A stretch of 64,000 nucleotides of DNA from a virus, in IMG/VR virus record IMGVR_UViG_3300045988_096839; one strand, written 5' to 3'. The notes below the pieces were generated by a model, which saw only the letters and a list, made by a program, of their open reading frames with translations, was not told where the DNA came from and made no database searches. Positions 5,187 to 41,687 of the stretch are shown here, piece by piece (position 1 is the stretch's first letter; the number at the start of each line of letters is the position of its first letter). The position numbers and the translations under genes were made by a program.

Positions 5187-5586
5187 TAATCTTGTTTTTA
5201 ATACTATTTAAAACTTTAACCATGTTATAATATACTGTTTCAGCTTCAACTTTTACACATGGCTGTACATCACCGTTATGGAAGCTTTCAATCATATCTT
5301 TATAACTATTTTCATACGTATTAATCAATTCATCTACGTAATCTGCGATATCGTTTACTTTCTGTTCATATATATCAGATGTTTCTTCTTTAACTTCTAT
5401 CATGAGTCCTTTTTCTACGAATTCGTCAATTACGTCTTGTGACATTTCCATTTGCACTTTTGATATTGATGCTCCGTTTTTATGTTCATCAGTACGATCC
5501 ATAGAGTATATACCATCTTCGTTTAATTCAAAAATATCACCCTTTTTTGCTATACCAAACGATTTAATTACTTTATAAGTTCTCAT
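5179..5586 (-). CDS. hypothetical acidic protein (135 aa)
   Basis: Intact ORF overlapping the downstream gene by 8 nt. Confidence 0.45.
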   Translation of the reverse strand: MRTYKVIKSFGIAKKGDIFELNEDGIYSMDRTDEHKNGASISKVQMEMSQDVIDEFVEKGLMIEVKEETSDIYEQKVNDIADYVDELINTYENSYKDMIESFHNGDVQPCVKVEAETVYYNMVKVLNSIKNKINE

Positions 5587-5753
5587 CTTTATATCTATTT
5601 TTAAAATTGTTTTTCTTTTTATTATTACCGTAATTATTGCATTTATACGCTATATATAAAACAATAAACGCTATTACTAATATTTCCATGTATAATAAAA
5701 CGCATATTTTGAGTGTTGTTAATATTTTTAACACTTTTTAATATCTAATAAAA

Positions 5754-9024: not shown

Positions 9025-9119
9025 CAATTCTAAATCCATACTTATAGCAAATAACACCATCTGTGAAGATCGTGTTATTTATATAATTATCTCTACACTG
9101 TGTGAATCAGTGTCAACTT

Positions 9120-9241
9120 TGTGGGGCTTATATCTAAAGAGCGCACTTAAATGGAGCTATTATCAATAGAAGGAACGTTAGTTGCAAATAACAAACCGGA
9201 AATTCTTTTTAGTTAAGTTTAAGCTTTAGTATTAGTGCAGA
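9120..9241 (+). repeat. module 1 of a repeated non-coding element family
   Basis: Starts with TGTGGGGCTTATATCTAA and ends with ATTAGTGCAGA, sharing both ends with the element at 9391-9489. Confidence 0.4.
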
Positions 9242-9390
9242 GTAATATCAAAGACAGAGTATATACCTGTAATTATACTCAAGTAAACTACTAACTACAG
9301 GACTGGTCATCCTGGTACAGGGAAGGCAGACCAGAGAGAGGTTTCGGAAGTAGTACCTCTCTCGCTCTTTATGGTGAGAATCCATAACAA

Positions 9391-9489
9391 GCATGTGGGG
9401 CTTATGTCTAATCAGATCAGAGGGCATTATTAATGTCGTTTGATGGTAGGTGGAGGAGATTAGCATTAGTGCAGACGTTAAAATCATGC
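9391..9489 (+). repeat. module 2 of the repeated non-coding element family
   Basis: GCATGTGGGGCTTATGTCTAA ... ATTAGTGCAGACGTTAAAATCATGC. The terminal GCATG/CATGC can pair. Confidence 0.45.
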
Positions 9490-9621
9490 AAAAAGATAGT
9501 GTTATGTTCAGTCTTATTCTACAATCTTTTAGTAAATCGGTACTATCTTTTTATTTTACCCAAGCGTGGGTCGTCCTTATTCACTGTCCCTTGAATAGAT
9601 GAAAATTCTGAACATCTGTAA

Positions 9622-9656
9622 AGTATAATGGCTTGTGAAAGTCATTATACTTTTTT
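9622..9656 (+). terminator. intrinsic terminator closing the tRNA-Leu / small-RNA region
   Basis: 11-bp stem AGTATAATGGC / GTCATTATACT (one G-U pair), loop TTGTGAAA, followed by T6. Confidence 0.6.
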
Positions 9657-9878
9657 CATTAGAATAATCAAAGCGTTGATTAGACGCTCTTATACTATAT
9701 AAATGATTTTTCGTATAAATCTATTCTGATTTATACAAATTAACCTCTTGCGTTGTGAAACGCCTTTCCACTTGACAAATAAATATAAGTATATAGTCTT
9801 GGTAGGTCCATATAAATAGCACTTAACTGATGCAGTCTATATTACTTATTTAACTGATTATTCATTAAAAACAATTAT

Positions 9879-10016
9879 ATGGAAATATTTATGCAAGCAG
9901 TTGCCGCATTATTATTAATTATTGTAGTATTATTTGTCTTTGCAATGGTAGCAATATCAATAAAAAACAATAAAAATAATAATAATGACGATAATGATTT
10001 TATGATGCAATGTTAA
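9879..10016 (+). CDS. possible 45-aa single-pass membrane peptide
   Basis: The hand-found ORF MEIFMQAVAALLLIIVVLFVFAMVAISIKNNKNNNNDDNDFMMQC is below the ORF-track cutoff. It has a hydrophobic core followed by a polar tail. Confidence 0.25.
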   Translation: MEIFMQAVAALLLIIVVLFVFAMVAISIKNNKNNNNDDNDFMMQC

Positions 10017-10181
10017 TTAGATTTATAACCTAGCCACAGACAGTTACAAGCCTGTAAATCGTTTTTGAATAGGGAGTAATAAATCTACGTAGAAACTCAA
10101 GGATAAGAGTATAAAAATATCCAAATTTTTAACAATAGTTTAAATCCTCACACAAGATTACAGCATCAAAAGATGTAGCGT

Positions 10182-11176: not shown

Positions 11177-11253
11177 TCATGTTTTAGTCATTATTGCACC
11201 GGTTCGTGAGAATCGGTGTAATATAAAATAAAAACGTCATCAGAAAATGACAA

Positions 11254-11364
11254 ACATGTGGGGTGTAAGTAATATTTTACATTTTATAAAGAAAAAGTGG
11301 ATTGTAAAGCTTTGTAAAATGCGTATCCATAAATATTATGATCATGCGGACGTTAAAATCATGT
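11254..11364 (+). repeat. module 3 of the repeated non-coding element family
   Basis: ACATGTGGGG ... CGGACGTTAAAATCATGT. It has the same 5-prime and 3-prime ends as 9391-9489. The closing pair is changed G-C to A-T on both sides. Confidence 0.45.
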
Positions 11365-13599: not shown

Positions 13600-14487
13600 T
13601 CTACGAACTATCCTAGAACAATGATTAATTCTACGTTCTAAAAGTAAGTGATTCTTATCATATGAGTACGGTTTAGCGACCTAGAAAATATTCCGGAATC
13701 ACTTATTTAAGATGAATTGACATCAACTATCCGTACTTTTATGTCAGTATAGTGGATAAAATTTATGCCAGACCAGTGCTTTAAAGGTCATGTTAGAGCA
13801 TCTCGTATCTTTGTATCAATGATGTAAGGCGTTATAGAATGGTTGCCTTTCTAACTAGTCTCGTAGACGAAAAACCTTTAAACAATCAATGTAATCAATG
13901 AATGCTTTATGCTTATAGTTCAATTGAGTCCCAATAATGGTGAGCACTTGCTATACATTGATAGTTATCAAGGCATTTCTTCATAATTCTAAAGTAATGA
14001 AAGTGCTTTTATGCCAAATAATTAAAATTTTAATAATAAAAGTGAACCGTAAATCGAATATTATTTAAATATATCGTAAGACCGTTGTATCCAAAAAATA
14101 TTATTATTATTTTAGTCATTATAATATTATTATAAAACTTTATATAAAATTAAAGTTAGCTTATATGCTATAGAAATATAAATTAATAATATTATACATT
14201 ACTTTAGAATTTCTATTTTTAAGTATAGTATCTTTGATTAGATACTATACTACATTTTAAGGTTATGCGGCATAAGGTCTACTGTTGTGTAATTATACGA
14301 CCTTGTAAAACTAAACAGAATAATATTACACTCGGACGAAATAGCGCTACGTCTAAAATGACTTATTTTAGTTTTTCAGTTTAATAAATCTCTAGTTCAA
14401 AAGATAGAACGAAGATATACTTGAAAGGATAAGAGATAATACAATATTAAAATATTGTACTCTTATAATAATATATAGATAACTGAA

Positions 14488-14630
14488 GGGGAAAGAGGAG
14501 AATTACTTTAAAAACTTGCGTTGTGCTCATAACACACGAGAAAACTGGTTGAAATCCAGTCATCCCCACTATATGACTGTTAGGTCATTATACAGTTGTT
14601 AAGACGAGGGTTCGACTCCCTCTAGCTCCA
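14488..14630 (+). ncRNA. tRNA-like element: Ala/tmRNA-type 3-prime domain without a canonical 5-prime half
   Basis: Perfect T arm GAGGG-TTCGACT-CCCTC followed by TAGCTCC-A, the tRNA-Ala/tmRNA-type 3-prime acceptor strand with U70. The upstream GGGGAAA could pair only at positions 1-4 (including G3-U70). There is a perfect anticodon-arm-like hairpin ACTGG-TTGAAAT-CCAGT at 14544-14560, but no D arm, and 45 nt separate that hairpin from the T arm. Confidence 0.3.
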
Positions 14631-14819
14631 CATTTTGATAACGTTATGCGGTAATTTACCTAAAAAGTAGCAAGCAAAAAACTAATGGACCTGTATAAAA
14701 ACGTTGCCACAATGCTAGTTTTTACAACTTATTTGGTTTTATCTTCAACGTGGATTCTGTATAACAGGTGCTAATACTCAAACTATAGAGTAATACTTTG
14801 TGAGAGTATTAGCAGTAAT

Positions 14820-14945
14820 GGAATATTAGTTTAATGGTAGAACAAAGCGTTTCGAAAGAATCGATGATTATGAATAACATTAAATTCAGCAAGAACGAAG
14901 TTATTATAATCCGCTTGAGCATGGGTTCGATTCCCATATATTCCA
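14820..14945 (+). tRNA. tRNA gene with a 55-nt insertion inside the anticodon loop (anticodon TCG/Arg if the canonical 37/38 intron position applies; isotype uncertain)
   Basis: Acceptor GGAATAT/ATATTCC (7 bp); D arm GTTT-AATGGTA-GAAC; anticodon stem AAGCG (14845-14849) / CGCTT (14912-14916); variable GAGC; T arm ATGGG-TTCGATT-CCCAT. There are 62 nt instead of 7 between the anticodon stem halves. Confidence 0.6.
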
Positions 14946-15324: not shown

Positions 15325-15394
15325 GGTAGTATCATTCAAGTGGTTAGGAAGACGCTCTGAACGTAAAATGCGGGTTCGAATCCCGCTACTACTC
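15325..15394 (+). tRNA. aberrant tRNA-Gln-like gene (anticodon CTG) with a 3-bp anticodon stem
   Basis: Acceptor GGTAGTA/TACTACT; the U8 and D region TC-ATTCAAGTGGTTAGGAAG resemble bacterial tRNA-Gln (TC-GCCAAGCGGTAAGGC); T arm GCGGG-TTCGAAT-CCCGC. Only 18 nt lie between the D and T arms, giving ACG-CTCTGAA-CGT plus a 5-nt variable loop. Confidence 0.5.
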
Positions 15395-17407: not shown

Positions 17408-17959
17408 ATGGATGCAGCAATAATTAAATTAGTAGACCAGGCAAAAGAAGGCAATAACACAGCCTTCACTAAGCTTTATAACAAATATAAACAAAATATT
17501 TGGTATACGATATTAAATATCGTAAAAAATACCGATATTGCAGATGATTTATTATCTGTTGTATTTACTAAAGCTTATGTTAAGTTGCAATCGTATATAA
17601 ATCATATTTCATTTGAAATGTGGCTAAAAACCATAGCTGTTAATACAGCAATTGATTATATACGTAAATATAAAAATGAGCAATTAAATAATTATATGGA
17701 TGATAAGGATTGCAAAATGCAACTAGAGGGGTTAGAAAAGAGTCCTGAAGAAAAAATGATATTACAGGAAAAGATTAAAATCGTAAACAAAGTAATCCCA
17801 ACCCTCAAAAAGAAATATAGAGATTTAATTGAAGCTCGTATTTCAGGTATGACTTATAAAGAAATGGCTGAAAAATTTAATCTTACGGAGTTATCTGTAA
17901 AAAGCCTCCTAAACAAGGCTCGCCAGAAGCTCAAAACAAAATTTAACAAAATTGTTTAA
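17408..17959 (+). CDS. ECF-type sigma-70 family RNA polymerase sigma factor
   Basis: Region 2-like DDLLSVVFTKAYVKLQSY...FEMWLKTIAVNTAIDYIRKYK and region 4-like KKKYRDLIEARISGMTYKEMAEKFNLTELSVKSLLNKARQKLK. Confidence 0.8.
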   Translation: MDAAIIKLVDQAKEGNNTAFTKLYNKYKQNIWYTILNIVKNTDIADDLLSVVFTKAYVKLQSYINHISFEMWLKTIAVNTAIDYIRKYKNEQLNNYMDDKDCKMQLEGLEKSPEEKMILQEKIKIVNKVIPTLKKKYRDLIEARISGMTYKEMAEKFNLTELSVKSLLNKARQKLKTKFNKIV

Positions 17960-19852: not shown

Positions 19853-20227
19853 ATGAAACGTATTAACGGAATCATCACGATTCTGACAATCGCAATCAGT
19901 GGTTATATTGGGTATTCTACAAACTTTGTAAATACTGCAACAGCAACCGCAGTTCCGATAGAAAGTAAGATTATCTTACCAGAACTACCGAAAACAGGCT
20001 TTAATTTGAATATTGATATGAATACTGGAAAAGTAGTTGCAAATGCTTCCCAAAATATTCGTGTAGATATTCAGAAAAAAGACTCTATCGTTACTCGATG
20101 GAAAACTAAAATCGTAGAAAAACCAATTTATATTCGAGTAAGAGAACTTCCTCGGCTTAAAAGAGAAAGAACAATTGTAAGTTCTTTTGTAAACACCGAA
20201 GAACTTTATAACTTACATTGTAAGTAA
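19853..20227 (+). CDS. membrane-anchored protein (124 aa)
   Basis: N-terminal hydrophobic helix GIITILTIAISGYIGY; TAA stop. Confidence 0.5.
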   Translation: MKRINGIITILTIAISGYIGYSTNFVNTATATAVPIESKIILPELPKTGFNLNIDMNTGKVVANASQNIRVDIQKKDSIVTRWKTKIVEKPIYIRVRELPRLKRERTIVSSFVNTEELYNLHCK

Positions 20228-22176
20228 GCAAAATAAAATTCGTGCTAGCGTATCTAGTAAACTCGCCAAGATATCTAAATCTTAATGAGTAGTGATTAAA
20301 TGTAGGAGATTTATCACAAACAGTACAGGATATTGAGTAGGTATAGTCGATTTATCTGTCTAATAAATCGCATCGAGAAGTAATAACATCTCAATCTAAT
20401 GGCTACCACCATTGGTTATATTGAAAAATATGATAACTCTATATGTCGAATTTACTGTTTAAGACTGAAAAGTTATAGAGAAAATGGGAGAGCGTTTCAC
20501 AACCCATAAGTGAGAACCGAACTGGTGACTAAAAGACGCAATTAGAGAATCAGCAGATTCAATAATTAAACGATAGAAAAAGTCCTGAAATGGCTAGGTA
20601 TCGTAAACCTAACATCCGCGTATCAATCAAGATATGAATCAAGAAGGGATGTAAACACGAGTTGCAAACTCGAAAAAGGTTCGAGTATAAAGAACTATTA
20701 AGACTTCCAACCTCTTAATACTTTTATAATAGGATTGATTAACATCCTAGGTGGGCTCCAAACCTTCCTTGCGGTTTGTAAACGCTAAAATAATACCAAA
20801 CATAGTGTTCTATTACGTCAACCTCTGGAAGTTGGCTCAGAAGAGCTTAAAAACGTATATATGAAGGTGTTTGTTTTATTTATATAGCACTATTGATTGC
20901 AGTGAGTTAGTAAATTGCGTATTCATAGAATTGTAGATAAAACGTTCGTTGTAAGAATGAAATATTAGCGTAATGTTATGTTAACCAGTACATAACTAAT
21001 CTGAACAAGTAAGTTGCAAGACTTAATCCTCCGTTGAAGGGAGATGTGTGAATTCAAGTATAAATAAGACGAAAGTGGTCGATGTCATTATACCACTATA
21101 ATTTCTAACGTGCTTTGCACTAGATTATGACAATGACTTTGCGGATGAAGAGCGCAATAACTCTATTTCGGTATATAGATGATTTTGGTATAAATCTATA
21201 TTATAAATAAGTTAACCTGGACTAGAACTGGATGACAAATTCTAGACAAGGTAGGACAGCAATCCTTATCGCTGTATCTGAAAACAATCGATACACATTC
21301 CAGTGTATACGAAAGGGCTTAGATTAGTACCGGAGAACATTGTTCCTTATTTAGGTAGCATAAGTAATAGATGTTATTACTTTTGAAAGTAAATCCTAGA
21401 TAACAGGTATAATTAATTATATGTTTAATCTTTTAAAAAATGTGGAAGTCCAATGGAATGTATTTAAGAAGTAAGCATTTAGCTGAAACTAATACTCTCC
21501 ACCCACGACTGTATAAAATAATTTGCAGTAAAACGAAAGTCATGAGCAGCAACTCATGTTAGTAGGTTCGCTGATTCCTTCATTAAGGATGATAGGTGGA
21601 AATCCTAAGATTATATGCAGGATAAGAACGAAATCGTAAGTACACGTAGGGTACACAAAGGACCCTTAAAGCAGAGTGGGTGTTTTGAAACATAAACAGC
21701 TCTTGCATGGTTTTTGGTAACGTTTTTCAACAAAAACGACCGGTGAAACTACGACATAGTCTAAAGCTGGTTAACAGCTATACCAACAACAAGCACGTCG
21801 AAATTTGATTCTGTTAGGCTTGTAAAATAATCAGAGTCCCGTACTCCTTACGTTAATAGGAAAATCGCTTTAATACATATTTCATTATGGGTATATATCT
21901 CCTACCGTTGGAGTCCCGTTATATTATTTTAATAGTATAACTAATTTAATATGTTTAAAGTAAAACATATATTACCAGATAATATCATCAAAAATAACAG
22001 ATTTATATATCAGTTTTTATATTGGTGAGAACTCAAAATGTTATTGAATTAACTAATCCTTTTTAAGTTTTTTAAAACGATAAGATATTAGACGCTTATG
22101 GATTACGAGAAAAAGAGTTCTCAAGAACTTTAGAGTTTATTAAAATCATTTTACTAATTTAAAAATCAAGAAAACT
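20228..22176. other. 1.95 kb ORF-free, hairpin-dense region (candidate large structured RNA)
   Basis: No ORF of 60 aa or more in any frame, with TAA, TAG and TGA all frequent in all frames. It is GC-richer than the flanking genes. It contains many local helices with GAAA-type loops (CGAAAG at least 3 times) and an alternative-pairing triplet CGAGT/ACTCG/CGAGT at 20658-20686. Confidence 0.4.
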
Positions 22177-22740
22177 ATGGATAAAAATAATTTTGGTTTG
22201 GCTAAATTTACCGAACAGGAAACACGGAATTACGCACCTATGATGCGGGCATATAACGGAGTGATTGGTATGAAGATTTGTTGCATCAAATCTGACAATA
22301 TCGATTTAAAATATAAGGAAAAGAAGAATGCAAATACTATTGCATCTTTGTGTACTAACATTCCAGTCAAAAAGTATTTCGTAGAATCATTTACTGTATT
22401 GAGTATTGCTCTCGATAAAGCAGCAAATGGTAGTCCGGTAATCAACTTCAATGGTCAATCCGAACTTACATTTCCACTGTCTCCAGATACAACAGACAGT
22501 CTTTTGAACGCAACTCGGGCTTCTATTAATGATGCAATTACCGAGTTCGAAGCAACTGGTAAAGTTAAATTCTTTACTGATATCGCTCTGTGTACTCAGG
22601 TAGCACAGGAGTTGAACGACATGAACGCCGATGCAATTGATAAGTTCGTAGAAAGTCTGATGAATCAGGCAAGCTCATTACGGACTCTTAACAAGACCAT
22701 GGGCTCAGAATTAGATGAATATACTAAGTCTCTTGAATAA
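22177..22740 (+). CDS. hypothetical protein (187 aa)
   Basis: Intact ORF with a TAA stop. Confidence 0.55.
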   Translation: MDKNNFGLAKFTEQETRNYAPMMRAYNGVIGMKICCIKSDNIDLKYKEKKNANTIASLCTNIPVKKYFVESFTVLSIALDKAANGSPVINFNGQSELTFPLSPDTTDSLLNATRASINDAITEFEATGKVKFFTDIALCTQVAQELNDMNADAIDKFVESLMNQASSLRTLNKTMGSELDEYTKSLE

Positions 22741-24709: not shown

Positions 24710-24782
24710 ACTTCTGTAGCTAAACTGGAAAAAGCATTACACTGATAAGGTAAGATTATGGGTTCGAATCCCGTCAGAAGTC
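24710..24782 (+). tRNA. tRNA-Ile (anticodon GAT)
   Basis: Acceptor ACTTCTG/CAGAAGT; D arm GCTA-AACTGGAAA-AAGC; anticodon arm TTACA-CTGATAA-GGTAA (A31/G39 mismatch; the loop is identical to E. coli tRNA-Ile GAU); T arm ATGGG-TTCGAAT-CCCGT. It ends 16 nt before the PolB ATG. Confidence 0.75.
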
Positions 24783-24798
24783 CTAAATTAGGAATTAT

Positions 24799-26649
24799 AT
24801 GAAAATACGTAATAAAACAGCATATGTATACGATATAGAAGTATTTAAAAATGTATTTCATTGTACACTATTAAATACTGAAACAGAAGAATTAATAAAA
24901 TTCGAATGCTCTGTACGTAAAAATGAAATGGAAGAAATGTGTAAATTCTTCTTACAACCAGATATATGTTTAGTTGGATATAATAATATACATTATGATA
25001 ATCCAATAATAAATTACTGTATTGAATATTTTTCTAATTCTAAATATACATATGATAAAATCTGTATGTCCATCTTTAATTTATCAACTATTATTACAAA
25101 AGATAAAGAAAATATTGATAAATGGAAAAGATGGAAATATGCGAATAATTTTTATACATTAGATTTACTTACTATGTTATATAGTCAAGCATTAAGAGTA
25201 TCTTTAAAAGAGATGCAAGTAACTATGATGTATAAAAATGTTCAAGAATTTAATTGCAATTGGCAAATCCCTTTAGCAACAACAGAAATAGATTCTATGA
25301 TAGATTATAATATAAATGATGTTATGTCTACTTATGAATTACTTAAACGCTGTGAAAAAGATATAAAACTTCGTTTAGATATTGAAGATCAATATAATAT
25401 TAAATGTCTTAGTAAAGACGGCGTTAATATTGGTATGCAAATATTAGCTGAAGAATATATGCGTAAAACAGGTATATCTTGGAATATATTAAAAGATTTA
25501 CGTTCTCCAGCAGATACTATAAATCTAAATGAAATTATTCTTCCGTTTATAAAGTATGATACAAAAATCCTTCAAGATTTACTTATTGAAATGAAATCAT
25601 TAACTGTTTCTCCTGGAAGAAAAAGTTACGAAAAGAAATTTCTATTAGGAGATAGAGTAATATCAGTAGGAGTAGGAGGAATTCATACTATAAATGAATC
25701 AGAAATAATTATTCCAAACGAAGATGAAATTCTTGTAGATTTAGATGTTGCATCACTATATCCAAGTATGTTACTTAATTTTGATTTTTATCCTAGACAT
25801 TTAGGAAAAGAATTTAAAGAAGTATATGCAGATATTCGAGAAAGACGAATAAAAGCAAAACATGCAAAAGATAAAGTTACAGATGCTACTTTAAAATTAG
25901 CTTTAAACGGCTTATCAGGAAATCTACAAAATGAATTTAGTTGGTGTTATGATCCAAAAGCAGTAATGGGCATTAGAATTAACGGTCAATTACTATTATT
26001 AATGTTAACAGAAAAATTGATGACATTAGGTATTACACCAATCCAATTAAATACAGATGGTATATTTGTTAAAATGCCTAAATCTGTATATTCTGAAGCA
26101 ATGAAAATTTGTAAAGAATGGGAAAATTTAACTGGTTTAGTATTAGAAGAAGATAGATTTAAAGCGTTTTATCAGTTAGCTGTTAATGATTATTTTGGAG
26201 TATTTGAAAATAATTTAATAAAAGAAAAAGGATGTTTTATTACATCTGTAATTCAAGGCAAAGGTCTAACTCCAAAAATAATACCAAAAGCAGTTGAAAA
26301 ATATTTTTTAGAAGGTATTAAACCTGAAGAATTTATTAAACAACATACAGATATAAAAGATTTTCTAATGTCTGAAAAGACTGGAAAACAATGGACCGTT
26401 GAATATAATGGTCAAACTCAACAAAGAACAAATCGTTTTTATGCTTCAACTGATGGCTGTTTTTTATATAAATGGAAAATAGATGATGGAGTAAAGAAAT
26501 ATCAAAATATGCTTACAGCATCAGGTGTTACTTTACTTAATAATTTTGATAATTTAAAAGAAAATCCAAAAATAAATTATCAATATTATATCACTGAAGC
26601 AAACAAAATAATAAATCAATTGAAAACTAAACAACTATCGTTGTTTTAA
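24799..26649 (+). CDS. family B DNA polymerase (compact, 616 aa)
   Basis: Exo I YDIEVF, Exo II GYNNIHYDNPII, Exo III YNINDVMSTYEL. Polymerase motif A is DLDVASLYPSM (DxxSLYPS) and motif C-like is QLNTDGIFV. Confidence 0.85.
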   Translation: MKIRNKTAYVYDIEVFKNVFHCTLLNTETEELIKFECSVRKNEMEEMCKFFLQPDICLVGYNNIHYDNPIINYCIEYFSNSKYTYDKICMSIFNLSTIITKDKENIDKWKRWKYANNFYTLDLLTMLYSQALRVSLKEMQVTMMYKNVQEFNCNWQIPLATTEIDSMIDYNINDVMSTYELLKRCEKDIKLRLDIEDQYNIKCLSKDGVNIGMQILAEEYMRKTGISWNILKDLRSPADTINLNEIILPFIKYDTKILQDLLIEMKSLTVSPGRKSYEKKFLLGDRVISVGVGGIHTINESEIIIPNEDEILVDLDVASLYPSMLLNFDFYPRHLGKEFKEVYADIRERRIKAKHAKDKVTDATLKLALNGLSGNLQNEFSWCYDPKAVMGIRINGQLLLLMLTEKLMTLGITPIQLNTDGIFVKMPKSVYSEAMKICKEWENLTGLVLEEDRFKAFYQLAVNDYFGVFENNLIKEKGCFITSVIQGKGLTPKIIPKAVEKYFLEGIKPEEFIKQHTDIKDFLMSEKTGKQWTVEYNGQTQQRTNRFYASTDGCFLYKWKIDDGVKKYQNMLTASGVTLLNNFDNLKENPKINYQYYITEANKIINQLKTKQLSLF

Positions 26650-39300: not shown

Positions 39301-41687
39301 TACTGCATCATAGCTTGAGCTTCAGATGCATTACCTATCTAATCTATTTGATATTCTATAGTTTTAGCCTAACTACGTCTACCAGCTCTTCTTTCAATCT
39401 GAGCTTTATTCTACAAAGATTTAAGAATATCACTTATTATTTCTCTAGCAATATTCATTCTACTTTGCGCATATTCTTGGTTAAGTTTATCATCTTGTTC
39501 TCCAAAAACTTTAGTCTTTATATCATATTCCACTGCTTTTTGTCTTTGGATATGAAATACTCCTAATTTTGGATCAACTTCAAAACTACCCATCTTCTTA
39601 CTAAAGAAAGCCTATTCTACAGTTTGTGTTTTACTATTATATTTATATACTATAGGAATAATACCTCTTTCATCAATTTGAACACCATAACTATTCAGTA
39701 TATGTTCATATGCACCTAACTGAAAATCATAAGCGTTTGTAGCAGTTTTAGCACCATTCTTTGACTTATTTACATAAGAGAATCCCCATAAACGTTTACC
39801 ATCTTTATTTTCAGTCTTACCGTCAAGTTCTATACATTTTGTTTTATAGTCAAATATTGCAAATTTACCAGTTTTTTTATTCTTTAATAGTAAGTCAGTA
39901 GTACCAGCTACACCTTTTTCAAAATCAGCAAGTATTGCTTCTGTTGCTACTAATTCGTAATTTTCTGATATATTCTTATATATTTGCTCTAACTATTGTA
40001 ATGCTTTAGAACTCAAAGCTGCTTGTCTTAATTTTCCAGTAGAAACATTTATAATAGATTTCATAAACGCTTCACGACGATAGGAGCCATTGAACATGCT
40101 TTCCAATACAGCATGAATAGTTGTACCTATTATTCTAGAATCATCATTATACGATCTTTGATTTTCACTAATATCTGAATCATCGTATACCGAATATAAA
40201 AGATTCTACTTAAATGTTGATACAGCTGTAAGTGGCTATCCATTGTACATATAAGTATGAGTATCGTCATCGAACTGTATCTTATTCGCTATTTCTTGTA
40301 GTATTGCTCTTACTTTATTTATGTCTTTTACTCTGTCAGAAGCCTTCTAAAAGTAAATCTGCCCTTCTTTTACAATTTGTTGAAAAATGCCTGATTTTTT
40401 AGCTAAATCTTTTCTTTGTAAAAAAGAATTAGTCAACTACATCTACAATGCTAACTTCATTATAGGTTGACCATTAACTACTGCTTTTATATATTGCCAT
40501 AATTTTTTCCAAAAACCGTAAGCGTCACCTTTTTGTTTAACAACCTACTCACCAATAGCTTGTACTAATGCTTCTTCACTATCATACTTTTGTATAGCTT
40601 TTTGTACTATAGGCGTTTCTCTAAACATTTCGATGTATCTGTGAGCATATTCGTGTGGAAGAGTATCCGCTTGATAGTTATCAGATAACATTATAGTAAT
40701 TGCTTCCAAATCAGTAGTATCTATTCTACCGTATTCACCTTCTGGTAAATTCTGATGCCATAATACAGTTATTTCTGGAAATAATCTTGCCAAAGTATCA
40801 GCAATATGTTTAAACGTTCTATCTGTTATAGCATCTCTTGGAATATATGTTTTATTTTCTTTTGTTTGATGATAAACTTTTTTATTAGAATCTGGTATAA
40901 TATTACTATATTCGATCAACGGCTCTCCGTTTTCATCAACGGTTTTGGATATATTACTGTTTTTCTACCATATAGGAATATTGATTTTATCACCAGATTT
41001 TTTCTTAGATACTTGTCTTTCACCAACTTTAGAAAACTATTCAAATTTACCAAACTTATTTAAAGCGTATATACCATCTTCTGATAATTCTCCCCAAGTA
41101 GAGACCATAGAACCTCCAGGAATAAGATTTATTAACTATTTCCAAAGTATTTTACGTTCTTCGTAAGTAGAAGGTATTGAAGTTTCCCCTCTAGATGTGG
41201 TTAAACTTCCAGTTTTTTCAGTAGATGTTTTAAAATGAACAGAATAAAAATTATCTTCGTTGTCTTTAACCAATTCAAAATAACCTTTTTCATGTTGATC
41301 TTTTAGATAAATTTTAACGGCTCTATTTACTTTATTCGGATCATTTTTCCAAGGTTTTGGATATTCTTCAATATCAACTAAATTGTAATCAACTTTATTT
41401 TTATTAAATATATCATTAGACACATTCAACCAATCACCAAACCAATTTCTAAACTCGTCTGTAAACGTTTTAGCTTTAGCCCGAATAGCTAATACTCTAT
41501 CACCGTTAAAATGGTTTAGAAGGTCTGAAAACAGCTTAGAAGGCTATCCATTGGGTGCAAATTCCAGACCATAACCATTATTTTCTGACAGAACATAGTA
41601 GGCAGCGCTTTCGCTGCCCAATATGTCTGTATATTCATCCAGTTGTTTTTTAACTTCTGGATTTTTTCTTAATAAACATGTTGCCAT
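36309..41687 (-). CDS. giant late protein (1792 codons, TAG read as sense) with zincin-like HExxH motif
   Basis: Ten ORF-track fragments (36309..36710 to 41136..41429) share one frame, and every internal boundary is TAG. My hand check of all gaps found no in-frame TAA or TGA. The ATG at 41685-41687 is preceded by AAGGAG, and the true stop is TAA at 36309-36311. I counted 22 in-frame TAGs. HEYAH lies at 40641-40655. Confidence 0.75.

Follow-up and report, generated by a model that had tools for sequence, protein, structure and literature searches.

A 1.95 kb gene-free gap in the genome of a crAss-like phage (positions 20228-22176 of IMG/VR record IMGVR_UViG_3300045988_096839) almost certainly encodes a conserved structured RNA. 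With a probability of roughly 0.6, this is an undescribed multi-domain non-coding RNA (ncRNA) of ~1.6-1.9 kb that is read from the plus strand and conserved throughout the Suoliviridae. The 64-kb stretch of DNA that was analysed, hereafter the window, carries genes for a sigma factor, a DNA polymerase and a helicase. The gap lies at the head of the DNA polymerase/helicase/primase module, between open reading frames (ORFs) of 124 amino acids (aa; 19853-20227) and 187 aa (22177-22740), which are complete, separate genes on the same plus strand.

In agreement with the first-pass annotation of this DNA, no ORF of at least 60 aa occurs in any of the six frames of 20228-22176, the longest having 41 aa. 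This is the longest ORF-free stretch in the window; the runners-up are 13625-14833 (1209 nt) and 39594-40544 (951 nt), and a further long stretch lies at 9488-10181 (694 nt). Shuffled sequence of the same composition was without a 60-aa ORF in 101 of 300 trials. For a phage whose DNA is densely coding, the oddity is that 1.95 kb is non-coding; lacking ORFs is not in itself unusual. We conclude that the gap is non-coding because stops are frequent in all frames, indels break the frame and substitutions are spread over all codon phases. Each frame holds 22-30 TAA, 9-16 TAG and 7-15 TGA codons, and the longest opening obtained by reassigning a single stop is 64 codons for TGA, 78 for TAG and 164 for TAA, which bears out the earlier statement that no single reassignment rescues a frame. 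Among relatives of >95% identity, 69 of the 71 indel events inside the gap are frame-breaking (two are multiples of three), and the substitutions fill the three phases evenly, with no 3-periodicity.

A protein-coding region (under a non-standard code or with programmed frameshifts), a decayed gene or a functionless degenerate intron is close to refuted by these results. What speaks for such an origin is that late genes elsewhere in the window look recoded. Between ~36000 and 64000 the structural and late-module ORFs of the minus strand look fragmented under the standard code, which suggests that the late genes use stop-codon recoding, as known for crAss-like phages. Annotators have also placed small coding sequences (CDSs) in the gap of several relatives. 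In GenBank records these hypothetical CDSs are drawn over conserved RNA blocks (locus L317, 6968-7129; L315, 4697-4882; L316, 5030-5536; L396, 844-1326; L399, 1294-3411), and in Dulem virus 42 a dozen calls of 30-100 aa are placed in the RNA region. As ORFs they are not conserved, and one of them has internal stops and is missing from sister genomes. Current annotation overlooks the element entirely, the region being either blank or filled with spurious small ORFs. The degenerate self-splicing intron that the first pass had offered as an alternative finds no intron model match, although a group I intron was detected in a related locus (L130), and in all lineages the ORFs on either side are complete genes, separate from each other. 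Finally, decay would have erased the invariant blocks and compensatory pairs that persist throughout a virus family.

Based on blastn, islands of ~75% identity to the gap lie in unannotated stretches of cr6_1 and cr115_1. Both genomes have a gene-free gap of 2.1-2.2 kb at the same position, and the genes around it are arranged alike: a sigma factor, proteins of ~125, ~500 and ~130 aa, the gap, a protein of ~190 aa and, further on, the DNA polymerase. A gene-free gap of 1.7-2.5 kb is present at the syntenic position in all five subfamilies of the Suoliviridae, namely Bearivirinae (cr6_1), Uncouvirinae (cr115_1, cr114_1 and cr125_1), Boorivirinae (cr10_1 and cr55_1), Loutivirinae (cr56_1) and Oafivirinae (Bohxovirus, cr7_1, cr131_1 from macaque and cr273_1 from pig), and also in Dulem virus 42 from lemur. 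The gap-bearing phages come from human, macaque, pig and lemur. The protein encoded downstream is 34% identical to its homologue in cr6_1 and 23% in cr115_1, and despite this divergence of the flanking protein the gaps share an ordered skeleton of near-invariant nucleotide blocks. The comparison of homologous regions of crAss-like genomes thus finds both the position and the sequence blocks kept throughout the Suoliviridae.

Further copies were gathered by pattern scans of IMG/VR followed by an nhmmer profile filter, with lineages defined at <95% identity. The filter was needed, as among the matches listed for the loose patterns AANNNGGAAGTNCAATGG and GAGAACCN{6,30}AAGACGC most are due to chance. 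At least 107 full-length copies in 26 lineages were obtained, nearly all on contigs of 50-105 kb. The 26-lineage nhmmer profile gives a colinear match across every named gap (E 9e-260 to 3e-15), and the block order is the same in all 26 lineages, with no losses, rearrangements or genes inserted between blocks. In the bacterial and archaeal genome collection the true matches are on ~100-kb or short contigs binned into metagenome-assembled genomes; these copies are mis-binned phage, and none is chromosomal.

A covariance model (CM) of the most conserved domain (core A; model R1) matches every lineage and none of 74 unrelated contigs. The family outgroup for R1 was crAss001 (Steigviridae), with Intestiviridae, Crevaviridae and other Crassvirales families outside the CM comparison; crAss001 has no gap >0.9 kb and no match (R1 E=0.37, nhmmer E>4). 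When core A was compared by blastn with 50,697 phage records, convincing E-values were obtained for Suoliviridae only. On these comparisons the element is specific to, and universal in, the Suoliviridae, and model R1 or the core A pattern is a family-specific marker for Suoliviridae in metagenomes. As a separate observation, the largest gene-free gap of crAss001 (~0.9 kb; L401 42966-43870, corresponding to crAss001 95965-96869) adjoins a gene for a TROVE-domain (Ro60-like) protein. Proteins of this family bind Y RNAs, and that gap might encode one.

The shared blocks are accompanied by extensive covariation. In an all-against-all scan of alignment columns, helices with several compensatory pairs were commoner than on parallel diagonals. 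Based on RNAalifold and 13 lineages, the plus strand folds at -221 kcal/mol with 263 pairs, 84 of them well supported and doubly covarying. The reverse complement reaches -204 kcal/mol with 238 pairs (71 well supported and doubly covarying), and six column-shuffled alignments reach -12 to -25 kcal/mol with 37-78 pairs (2-8 doubly covarying). The plus strand is favoured as the RNA strand because its consensus energy is lower and because, among Watson-Crick-covarying pairs, G-U exceeds A-C by 104:54.

This 2:1 excess also bears on whether the gap is a cis-acting replication origin, in which the blocks would be protein-binding sites and the helices would be those of single-stranded DNA or of a primer transcript. 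Compensatory changes would equally preserve hairpins in single-stranded DNA, the replication genes follow directly in the module that the gap heads, and the 3' tail of the gap is AT-rich (GC 0.21). The G-U excess fits RNA, however, and an origin needs far less than the >80 covarying pairs, the pseudoknot and the helices reaching over hundreds of nucleotides that are seen here. The gap also has no significant internal repeats and no iterons, and the cumulative GC skew rises monotonically through the region without a turning point. We regard an origin as very unlikely.

The full-length alignment (A7, 3227 columns) exceeds the size limit for pair counting, so the domains were counted separately. 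In core A, based on the MAFFT seed alignment A3, 92.9% of cells are paired compared with 34-44% when the partners are slid, both sides change in 20 of 31 pairs compared with 2-7, and none of 500 shuffles reaches any of the measures. When 31 distinct sequences are realigned to R1 (A5), 94.2% are paired (28-44% slid), both sides change in 27 of 28 pairs, and the covariation score is 0.53 against at most 0.07. For the middle domain, RNAalifold recovers a closing helix (20793-97/21187-91) that spans 400-550 nt, and 29 of 36 pairs covary. With a 13-bp helix (20873-85/21058-70) included, 91.9% are paired (28-49% slid) and 38 of 49 pairs change on both sides, values reached by 0 of 500 shuffles. Covariation is strong, and at least three domains (core A with its pseudoknot, the closed middle domain of 400-550 nt and the 3' domain) keep their base pairs through compensatory substitutions. 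For the 3' domain, pair tables (A9) show that most pairs are kept, with several pair types, in all eight of the eight non-Uncouvirinae lineages. RNAalifold fails on this domain because MAFFT mixes two differently built sub-groups, and the combination of the two programs breaks down on mixed divergent lineages (4 pairs on A2, 18 on A9). The long-range helices span 190-550 nt.

The layout of the candidate RNA gene within 20228-22176 is given here in window coordinates on the plus strand. A hairpin directly after the upstream stop codon (CUAG-CGUAU-CUAG, 20245-20257) may be the first structured element; support is weak and comes from few lineages, including L034, where CUAG/CUAG becomes CUGG/CCAG. 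The 5' domain (20322-20431) begins with the near-invariant block AGUACAGGAUAUU (20322-34) and contains a helix (20330-34/20427-31) and a hairpin with the conserved loop GCUAC(A/C)AC (20399-402/20409-12), in which 4 of 5 and 3 of 4 pairs, respectively, are doubly covarying. The hairpin changes from AUGG/CCAU to AUAG/CUAU, AAAG/CUUU, ACAG/CUGU and GUAG/CUAC. Positions 20336-20390 are a lineage-specific insertion. The CGATTTAT/ATAAATCG hairpin (20343-66), which the first pass had singled out, sits in this insertion of ~50 nt seen only in the lineage of the window.

Core A (20428-20572) has a long hairpin (20437-44/20473-80), whose inner stem is 20445-47/20463-65, a pseudoknot (20484-20539) and a two-part hairpin (20540-42/20565-67 and 20546-50/20557-61). 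In the pseudoknot, the pairing of AUGGG (20484-88) with CCCAU (20503-07) crosses that of GCG.U (20492-96) with ACGC (20536-39). The first arm changes from GGG/CCC to GGA/UCC and CAGG/CCUG, and the second from GCG/CGC to GGG/CCC, GAG/CUC and GUG/CAC. Enclosed by the pseudoknot is the invariant loop GAGAACC-R-NNN-UGG-N-G (20512-27), which is closed by 20509-11/20528-30 and whose closing pair changes from U-A to A-U or C-G.

The linker region (20596-20769) carries conserved hairpins at 20596-99/20607-10, 20732-35/20744-47 and 20749-55/20763-69 (loop CUCCAAAC), based on RNAalifold with 13 lineages, and a helix at 20612-17/20647-53, where four of the 6 bp of 20612-17/20647-52 are doubly covarying. 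Its variable part (20654-20730) contains the three-part motif CGAGU/ACUCG/CGAGU pointed out in the first pass, which recurs in some lineages (L008 and L016). Within the middle domain (20793-21191), the closing helix and the 13-bp helix are accompanied by helices at 20800-03/20867-70 and 20811-15/20855-59, by AGUGGU (21074-79) paired with ACCACU (21092-97), by the hairpin GUGC-UUU-GCAC (21110-20) and by a hairpin of AGAG (21149-52) and CUCU (21161-64) with the loop CGCAAUAA. The variable connector that follows (21192-21420) has lineage-specific hairpins (21257-61/21270-74, 21291-96/21303-08 and 21351-58/21402-09) and a lower pairing consistency (0.71-0.79, RNAalifold). It is largely deleted in L325, where profile positions 959-1209 are covered by only 124 nt.

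The 3' domain (21421-21941) includes block B4 (GGAAGUCCAAUGG, 21444-56) and two helices that enclose ~100 nt (21509-14/21615-20 and 21518-23/21609-14). Its hairpins are at 21541-46/21553-58, 21576-78/21587-89 (loop UCAUUAA), 21594-96/21604-06 (loop UGGAAAU), 21635-37/21644-46, 21648-52/21662-66 and 21721-27/21732-38. Three of them had been noticed in the first pass and are placed here at their true coordinates. CATGAG/CTCATG (the first of the series) is kept with compensatory changes in other lineages, AGGGU/ACCCU (21648-52/21662-66) likewise shows such changes by eye, and for CGUUUUU/AAAAACG (the last) compensatory conservation in other lineages holds in part. Block B5 (21674-77/21699-702 and 21681-85/21694-98, loop UGAAACAU) changes from UGUUU/AAACA to UGCUG/CAGCA. 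In L061 (A7 columns ~2001-2053) the B5 hairpin, AGUGGGUG...CAGCU, is found ~100 nt upstream of its usual site and is gone from that site, behaving like a movable peripheral module.

Block B6 is a hairpin of CUCC (21899-902) and GGAG (21910-13) with four compensatory variants, among them CUCU/AGAG, CUCA/UGAG and AUCCC/GGGAU. Its conserved 7-nt loop UACCGUU (21903-21909) is complementary to AAUGG (21452-56) of B4, ~450 nt upstream. The loop and the B4 strand are a candidate tertiary pairing, in which changes are one-sided only (U-G to U-A and U-G to C-G). A 14-bp long-range helix between B4 and B6 was rejected because B6 forms its own covarying hairpin, which leaves only the loop free for B4. 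In the AT-rich tail, RNAalifold predicts a long hairpin (22023-34/22114-23, within 22023-22123) of 10 pairs, all doubly covarying, at a consistency of 0.81. Most lineages have a conserved ~95-nt module, GAAGAACAGUUGACUCAUCUGUCUAAUGAGUAAAGUCCUACGGGGAAUGCUGAGUA...ACGUUCUAGUA, at the 3' end of the gap (A7 columns ~2650-2810; L001 ~5560-5700, L002 and most others) that has no Rfam match. It is equivalent to ~21990-22125 of the window, where the closing helix of the module is kept, the interior is different and the module sequence is absent.

The position of this module, just before the downstream gene, would suit a giant cis-regulatory leader (the 5' untranslated region of the 187-aa gene), or the gap could be the 3' untranslated region of the upstream operon. 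In either case the region would govern the expression or stability of adjacent genes and not act in trans. Its orientation is that of both neighbours, from which no promoter or terminator separates it. We consider either form improbable to a high degree. Core A, where conservation is highest, lies 1.6 kb away from the start codon of the downstream gene, the 3' module closest to that gene is the very part lost in the window, and the leaders of bacteria and phages known to us are one order of magnitude smaller.

That the gap encodes one large RNA rather than several is probable, and we infer it from 26 lineages in which the block order is constant, no block is lost or rearranged and no gene has entered between blocks. 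The gap could instead be an array in which several structured RNA genes or ribozymes stand side by side (core A, the middle domain and the 3' domain, for instance), each being made or processed independently, as in the Hatchet, RAGATH and tRNA clusters at other sites of these genomes. The covariation-supported helices are all within domains, the connectors between domains are variable to the point of the deletion in L325, and the B5 hairpin is relocated in L061. Small structured RNAs and self-cleaving ribozymes are also numerous in these phages and would be capable of processing a long transcript. The order, presence and spacing of the blocks are nevertheless kept in 26 lineages and five subfamilies despite flanking-protein identities of 23-34%, no known ribozyme, tRNA-like element, promoter or terminator lies between the domains, and the middle domain is by itself a closed unit of 400-550 nt. 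An array is, in our judgement, unlikely, though it deserves serious consideration.

Several results weigh against the single large RNA or limit how far it can be taken. Between core A and the middle or 3' domain there is no robust covarying helix; cross-domain helices are no commoner than the parallel-diagonal control, and the inter-domain candidate 20322-26/21347-51 has one covarying pair. As no solid inter-domain helix was found, a single molecule stays at the level of what we infer. The 3' domain of Uncouvirinae aligns poorly and may be built differently, and the alignments are MAFFT- or CM-based and partly fitted to structure. At the 5' edge of the gap there is no sigma-70-type or Bacteroidota-type promoter: sigma-70-type sites are rarer in the region than in shuffles, and the Bacteroidota motif TTTG..TAnnTTTG occurs at chance level and not at this edge. 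The 3' edge has no intrinsic terminator, the sole terminator-like site on the plus strand being an internal conserved hairpin, and transcript ends are not definable from sequence. The folding energy of the single sequence is unexceptional, and z-scores do not separate the region from coding DNA. The conserved 477-aa protein encoded nearby shows no recognisable RNA-binding fold in sequence libraries or in its AlphaFold model.

The first-pass observation is largely borne out, yet the case does not rest on its cues, such as GC content and helices visible by eye, several of which did not hold. The region was said to be visibly GC-richer than its neighbours; the difference is marginal: GC is 0.326 in the region (core 0.344) and 0.305 in the whole window, and the genes before and after the gap have 0.35 and 0.287, respectively. 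Dense secondary-structure potential was also claimed, and the minimum free energy z-scores of the region (-2.75 and -3.05) are not distinctive when set against that of a 1-kb coding control just upstream (-3.96). A direct repeat, GAGTCCCGT, proved coincidental: only the second copy lies inside a conserved block, and the first varies in relatives. The gap had further been described as near tRNA genes. The nearest is tRNA-Ile at 24710, 2.5 kb downstream, with others ~5 kb upstream; the surrounding module is rich in tRNAs and ribozymes, but the gap itself is not tRNA-adjacent.

Among the other features of this part of the window are an extracytoplasmic function (ECF)-type sigma factor (17408-17959) and a family-B DNA polymerase (24799-26649) that is 68% identical to the cr6_1 enzyme. 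Three Hatchet self-cleaving ribozymes (RF02678; 70-93 bits, gathering score 51) are on the plus strand at 9091-9253, 9365-9489 and 11236-11364, within an ORF-poor stretch upstream of the gap. Based on Rfam, related loci have Hatchet, RAGATH-9 and RAGATH-20 RNAs as well as a group I intron. Two matches to tRNA covariance models on the plus strand (14820-14945 and 15325-15394) have no counterpart among the ARAGORN calls; the former, of 126 nt, may contain an intron. In Uncouvirinae (cr115_1, cr114_1 and cr125_1), a phage-encoded transfer-messenger RNA (tmRNA) is annotated a few kb upstream of the gap, as is a 'ribosomal protein-like protein' (L002 1-357, L317 1948-2390 and L393 1295-1744). The neighbouring proteins of 477, 124, 187 and 168 aa have no match in PHROGs, Pfam, NCBIfam or a PDB sequence search. 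In its AlphaFold model, the 477-aa protein combines a disordered N-terminus rich in lysine, proline and glutamate with an all-alpha C-terminal domain, and the matches of the model are confined to crAss-like orthologues.

We propose that the RNA would be read from the plus strand together with the replication and early-middle gene module, that its domains would belong to a single transcript folding into one ornate particle, and that it may act in trans, as a folded scaffold or ribonucleoprotein (RNP), during infection. This trans-acting mechanism is drawn by analogy with GOLLD and ROOL and is put forward tentatively. It is possible, at somewhat under even odds, that the whole region is a single RNA forming an ornate machine, either of RNA only or as an RNP, that serves as a cage, scaffold or ribozyme and is indispensable to infection by Suoliviridae. 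A tie to the functions in RNA and translation takeover that crowd this part of the genome may exist. It is plausible that the RNA would help the phage to take over translation or RNA processing, because the module is crowded with tRNAs, a tmRNA (in Uncouvirinae), ribozymes, RAGATH RNAs and a sigma factor, and because the late genes look recoded.

The crAss-like phages are among the most abundant human gut viruses, and we know of no cultured representative of the Suoliviridae. About 2% of every Suoliviridae genome is given to RNA with conserved pseudoknots and long-range helices, which implies a function under strong selection. If the region is one RNA, it is about twice the size of GOLLD and pushes the upper size of ornate phage RNAs far past GOLLD and ROOL. 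Such an RNA would also be a ready target for cryo-electron microscopy, with a deep natural alignment for modelling. As a single molecule it would, to our knowledge, exceed in size every other class of structured non-ribosomal ncRNA from bacteria or their viruses.

Known RNA classes were sought with Rfam 15. At the gathering score, cmscan gives no match in the region of the window or in the gaps of eight relatives, and at E<=10 the segment 20100-22300 has two chance-level matches only (SpR08, E=0.25; a CRISPR repeat, E=4.9). The same scans detect Hatchet, RAGATH-9, RAGATH-20, a group I intron and tRNAs nearby. Even at E<=10, no match is obtained to any of the families proposed for comparison in the first pass (GOLLD, ROOL, HEARO, group I and II introns, RNase P and tmRNA). 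GOLLD (RF01998) was rejected as its covariance model has no match at the gathering score or at E<=10, nor in the eight homologous loci, and ROOL (RF03087) as its model has none at either threshold. OLE, HEARO and raiA were rejected for want of an Rfam match. A group I intron (RF00028) was rejected with no match at E<=10, the intron in L130 being detected at 85 bits by the same library, and a group II intron with no Rfam match and no ORF >41 aa. RNase P RNA, tmRNA and rRNA fragments were rejected since cmscan and ARAGORN find nothing in the region. We found no description of the element in the crAss-like comparative genomics paper or its preprint, nor in papers mentioning GOLLD or ROOL, or Suoliviridae plus non-coding terms, and a full-text search of the Minerva preprint finds no mention of crAss. 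As far as the tools and libraries used can tell, this is a new RNA class.

Group I and II introns are similar in being multi-domain RNAs of comparable size that are common in crAss-like phages, one group I intron being present in L130. The Suoliviridae element differs in lying between two complete, unrelated genes, in having no intron-encoded ORF, and in being fixed at one locus family-wide, whereas introns are sporadic. OLE, HEARO and raiA share long conserved, covarying folds and were likewise found by comparative genomics of long intergenic regions. They are 200-650 nt long and chromosomal or transposon-borne, and OLE and HEARO have known protein partners encoded nearby.

The closest parallels are the large phage RNAs GOLLD and ROOL, which are found near tRNA islands and assemble into RNA-only cages (PMC12286853). 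ROOL is a large ornate phage or prophage RNA with multiple pseudoknots and no known protein partner that is thought to form an RNA-only particle (PMC12286853). At ~580-660 nt it is about one third the size of the new element, and it differs in host range and architecture. GOLLD rises during lysis and pulls down ribosomes (PMC12286853). Like the new element it is a phage- or prophage-encoded, very large structured ncRNA with pseudoknots and with more-conserved and more-variable parts, and it lies in genome regions with tRNA genes (PMC12286853); the Suoliviridae element is 2.5 kb from its nearest tRNA. The two differ in that cmscan finds no homology, that the new element measures 1.6-1.9 kb while GOLLD has 'many members exceeding 800 nt', and that the new element occurs only in Suoliviridae phages, from animal guts dominated by Bacteroidota. 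The earlier reading of an unknown large structured RNA that recalls GOLLD and ROOL in size and context is supported. With ~1.6 kb of conserved blocks, many covarying helices and a pseudoknot, the Suoliviridae element has the structural features of the large ornate phage ncRNAs, and it is itself phage-encoded, on crAss-sized contigs only and with no chromosomal copy.

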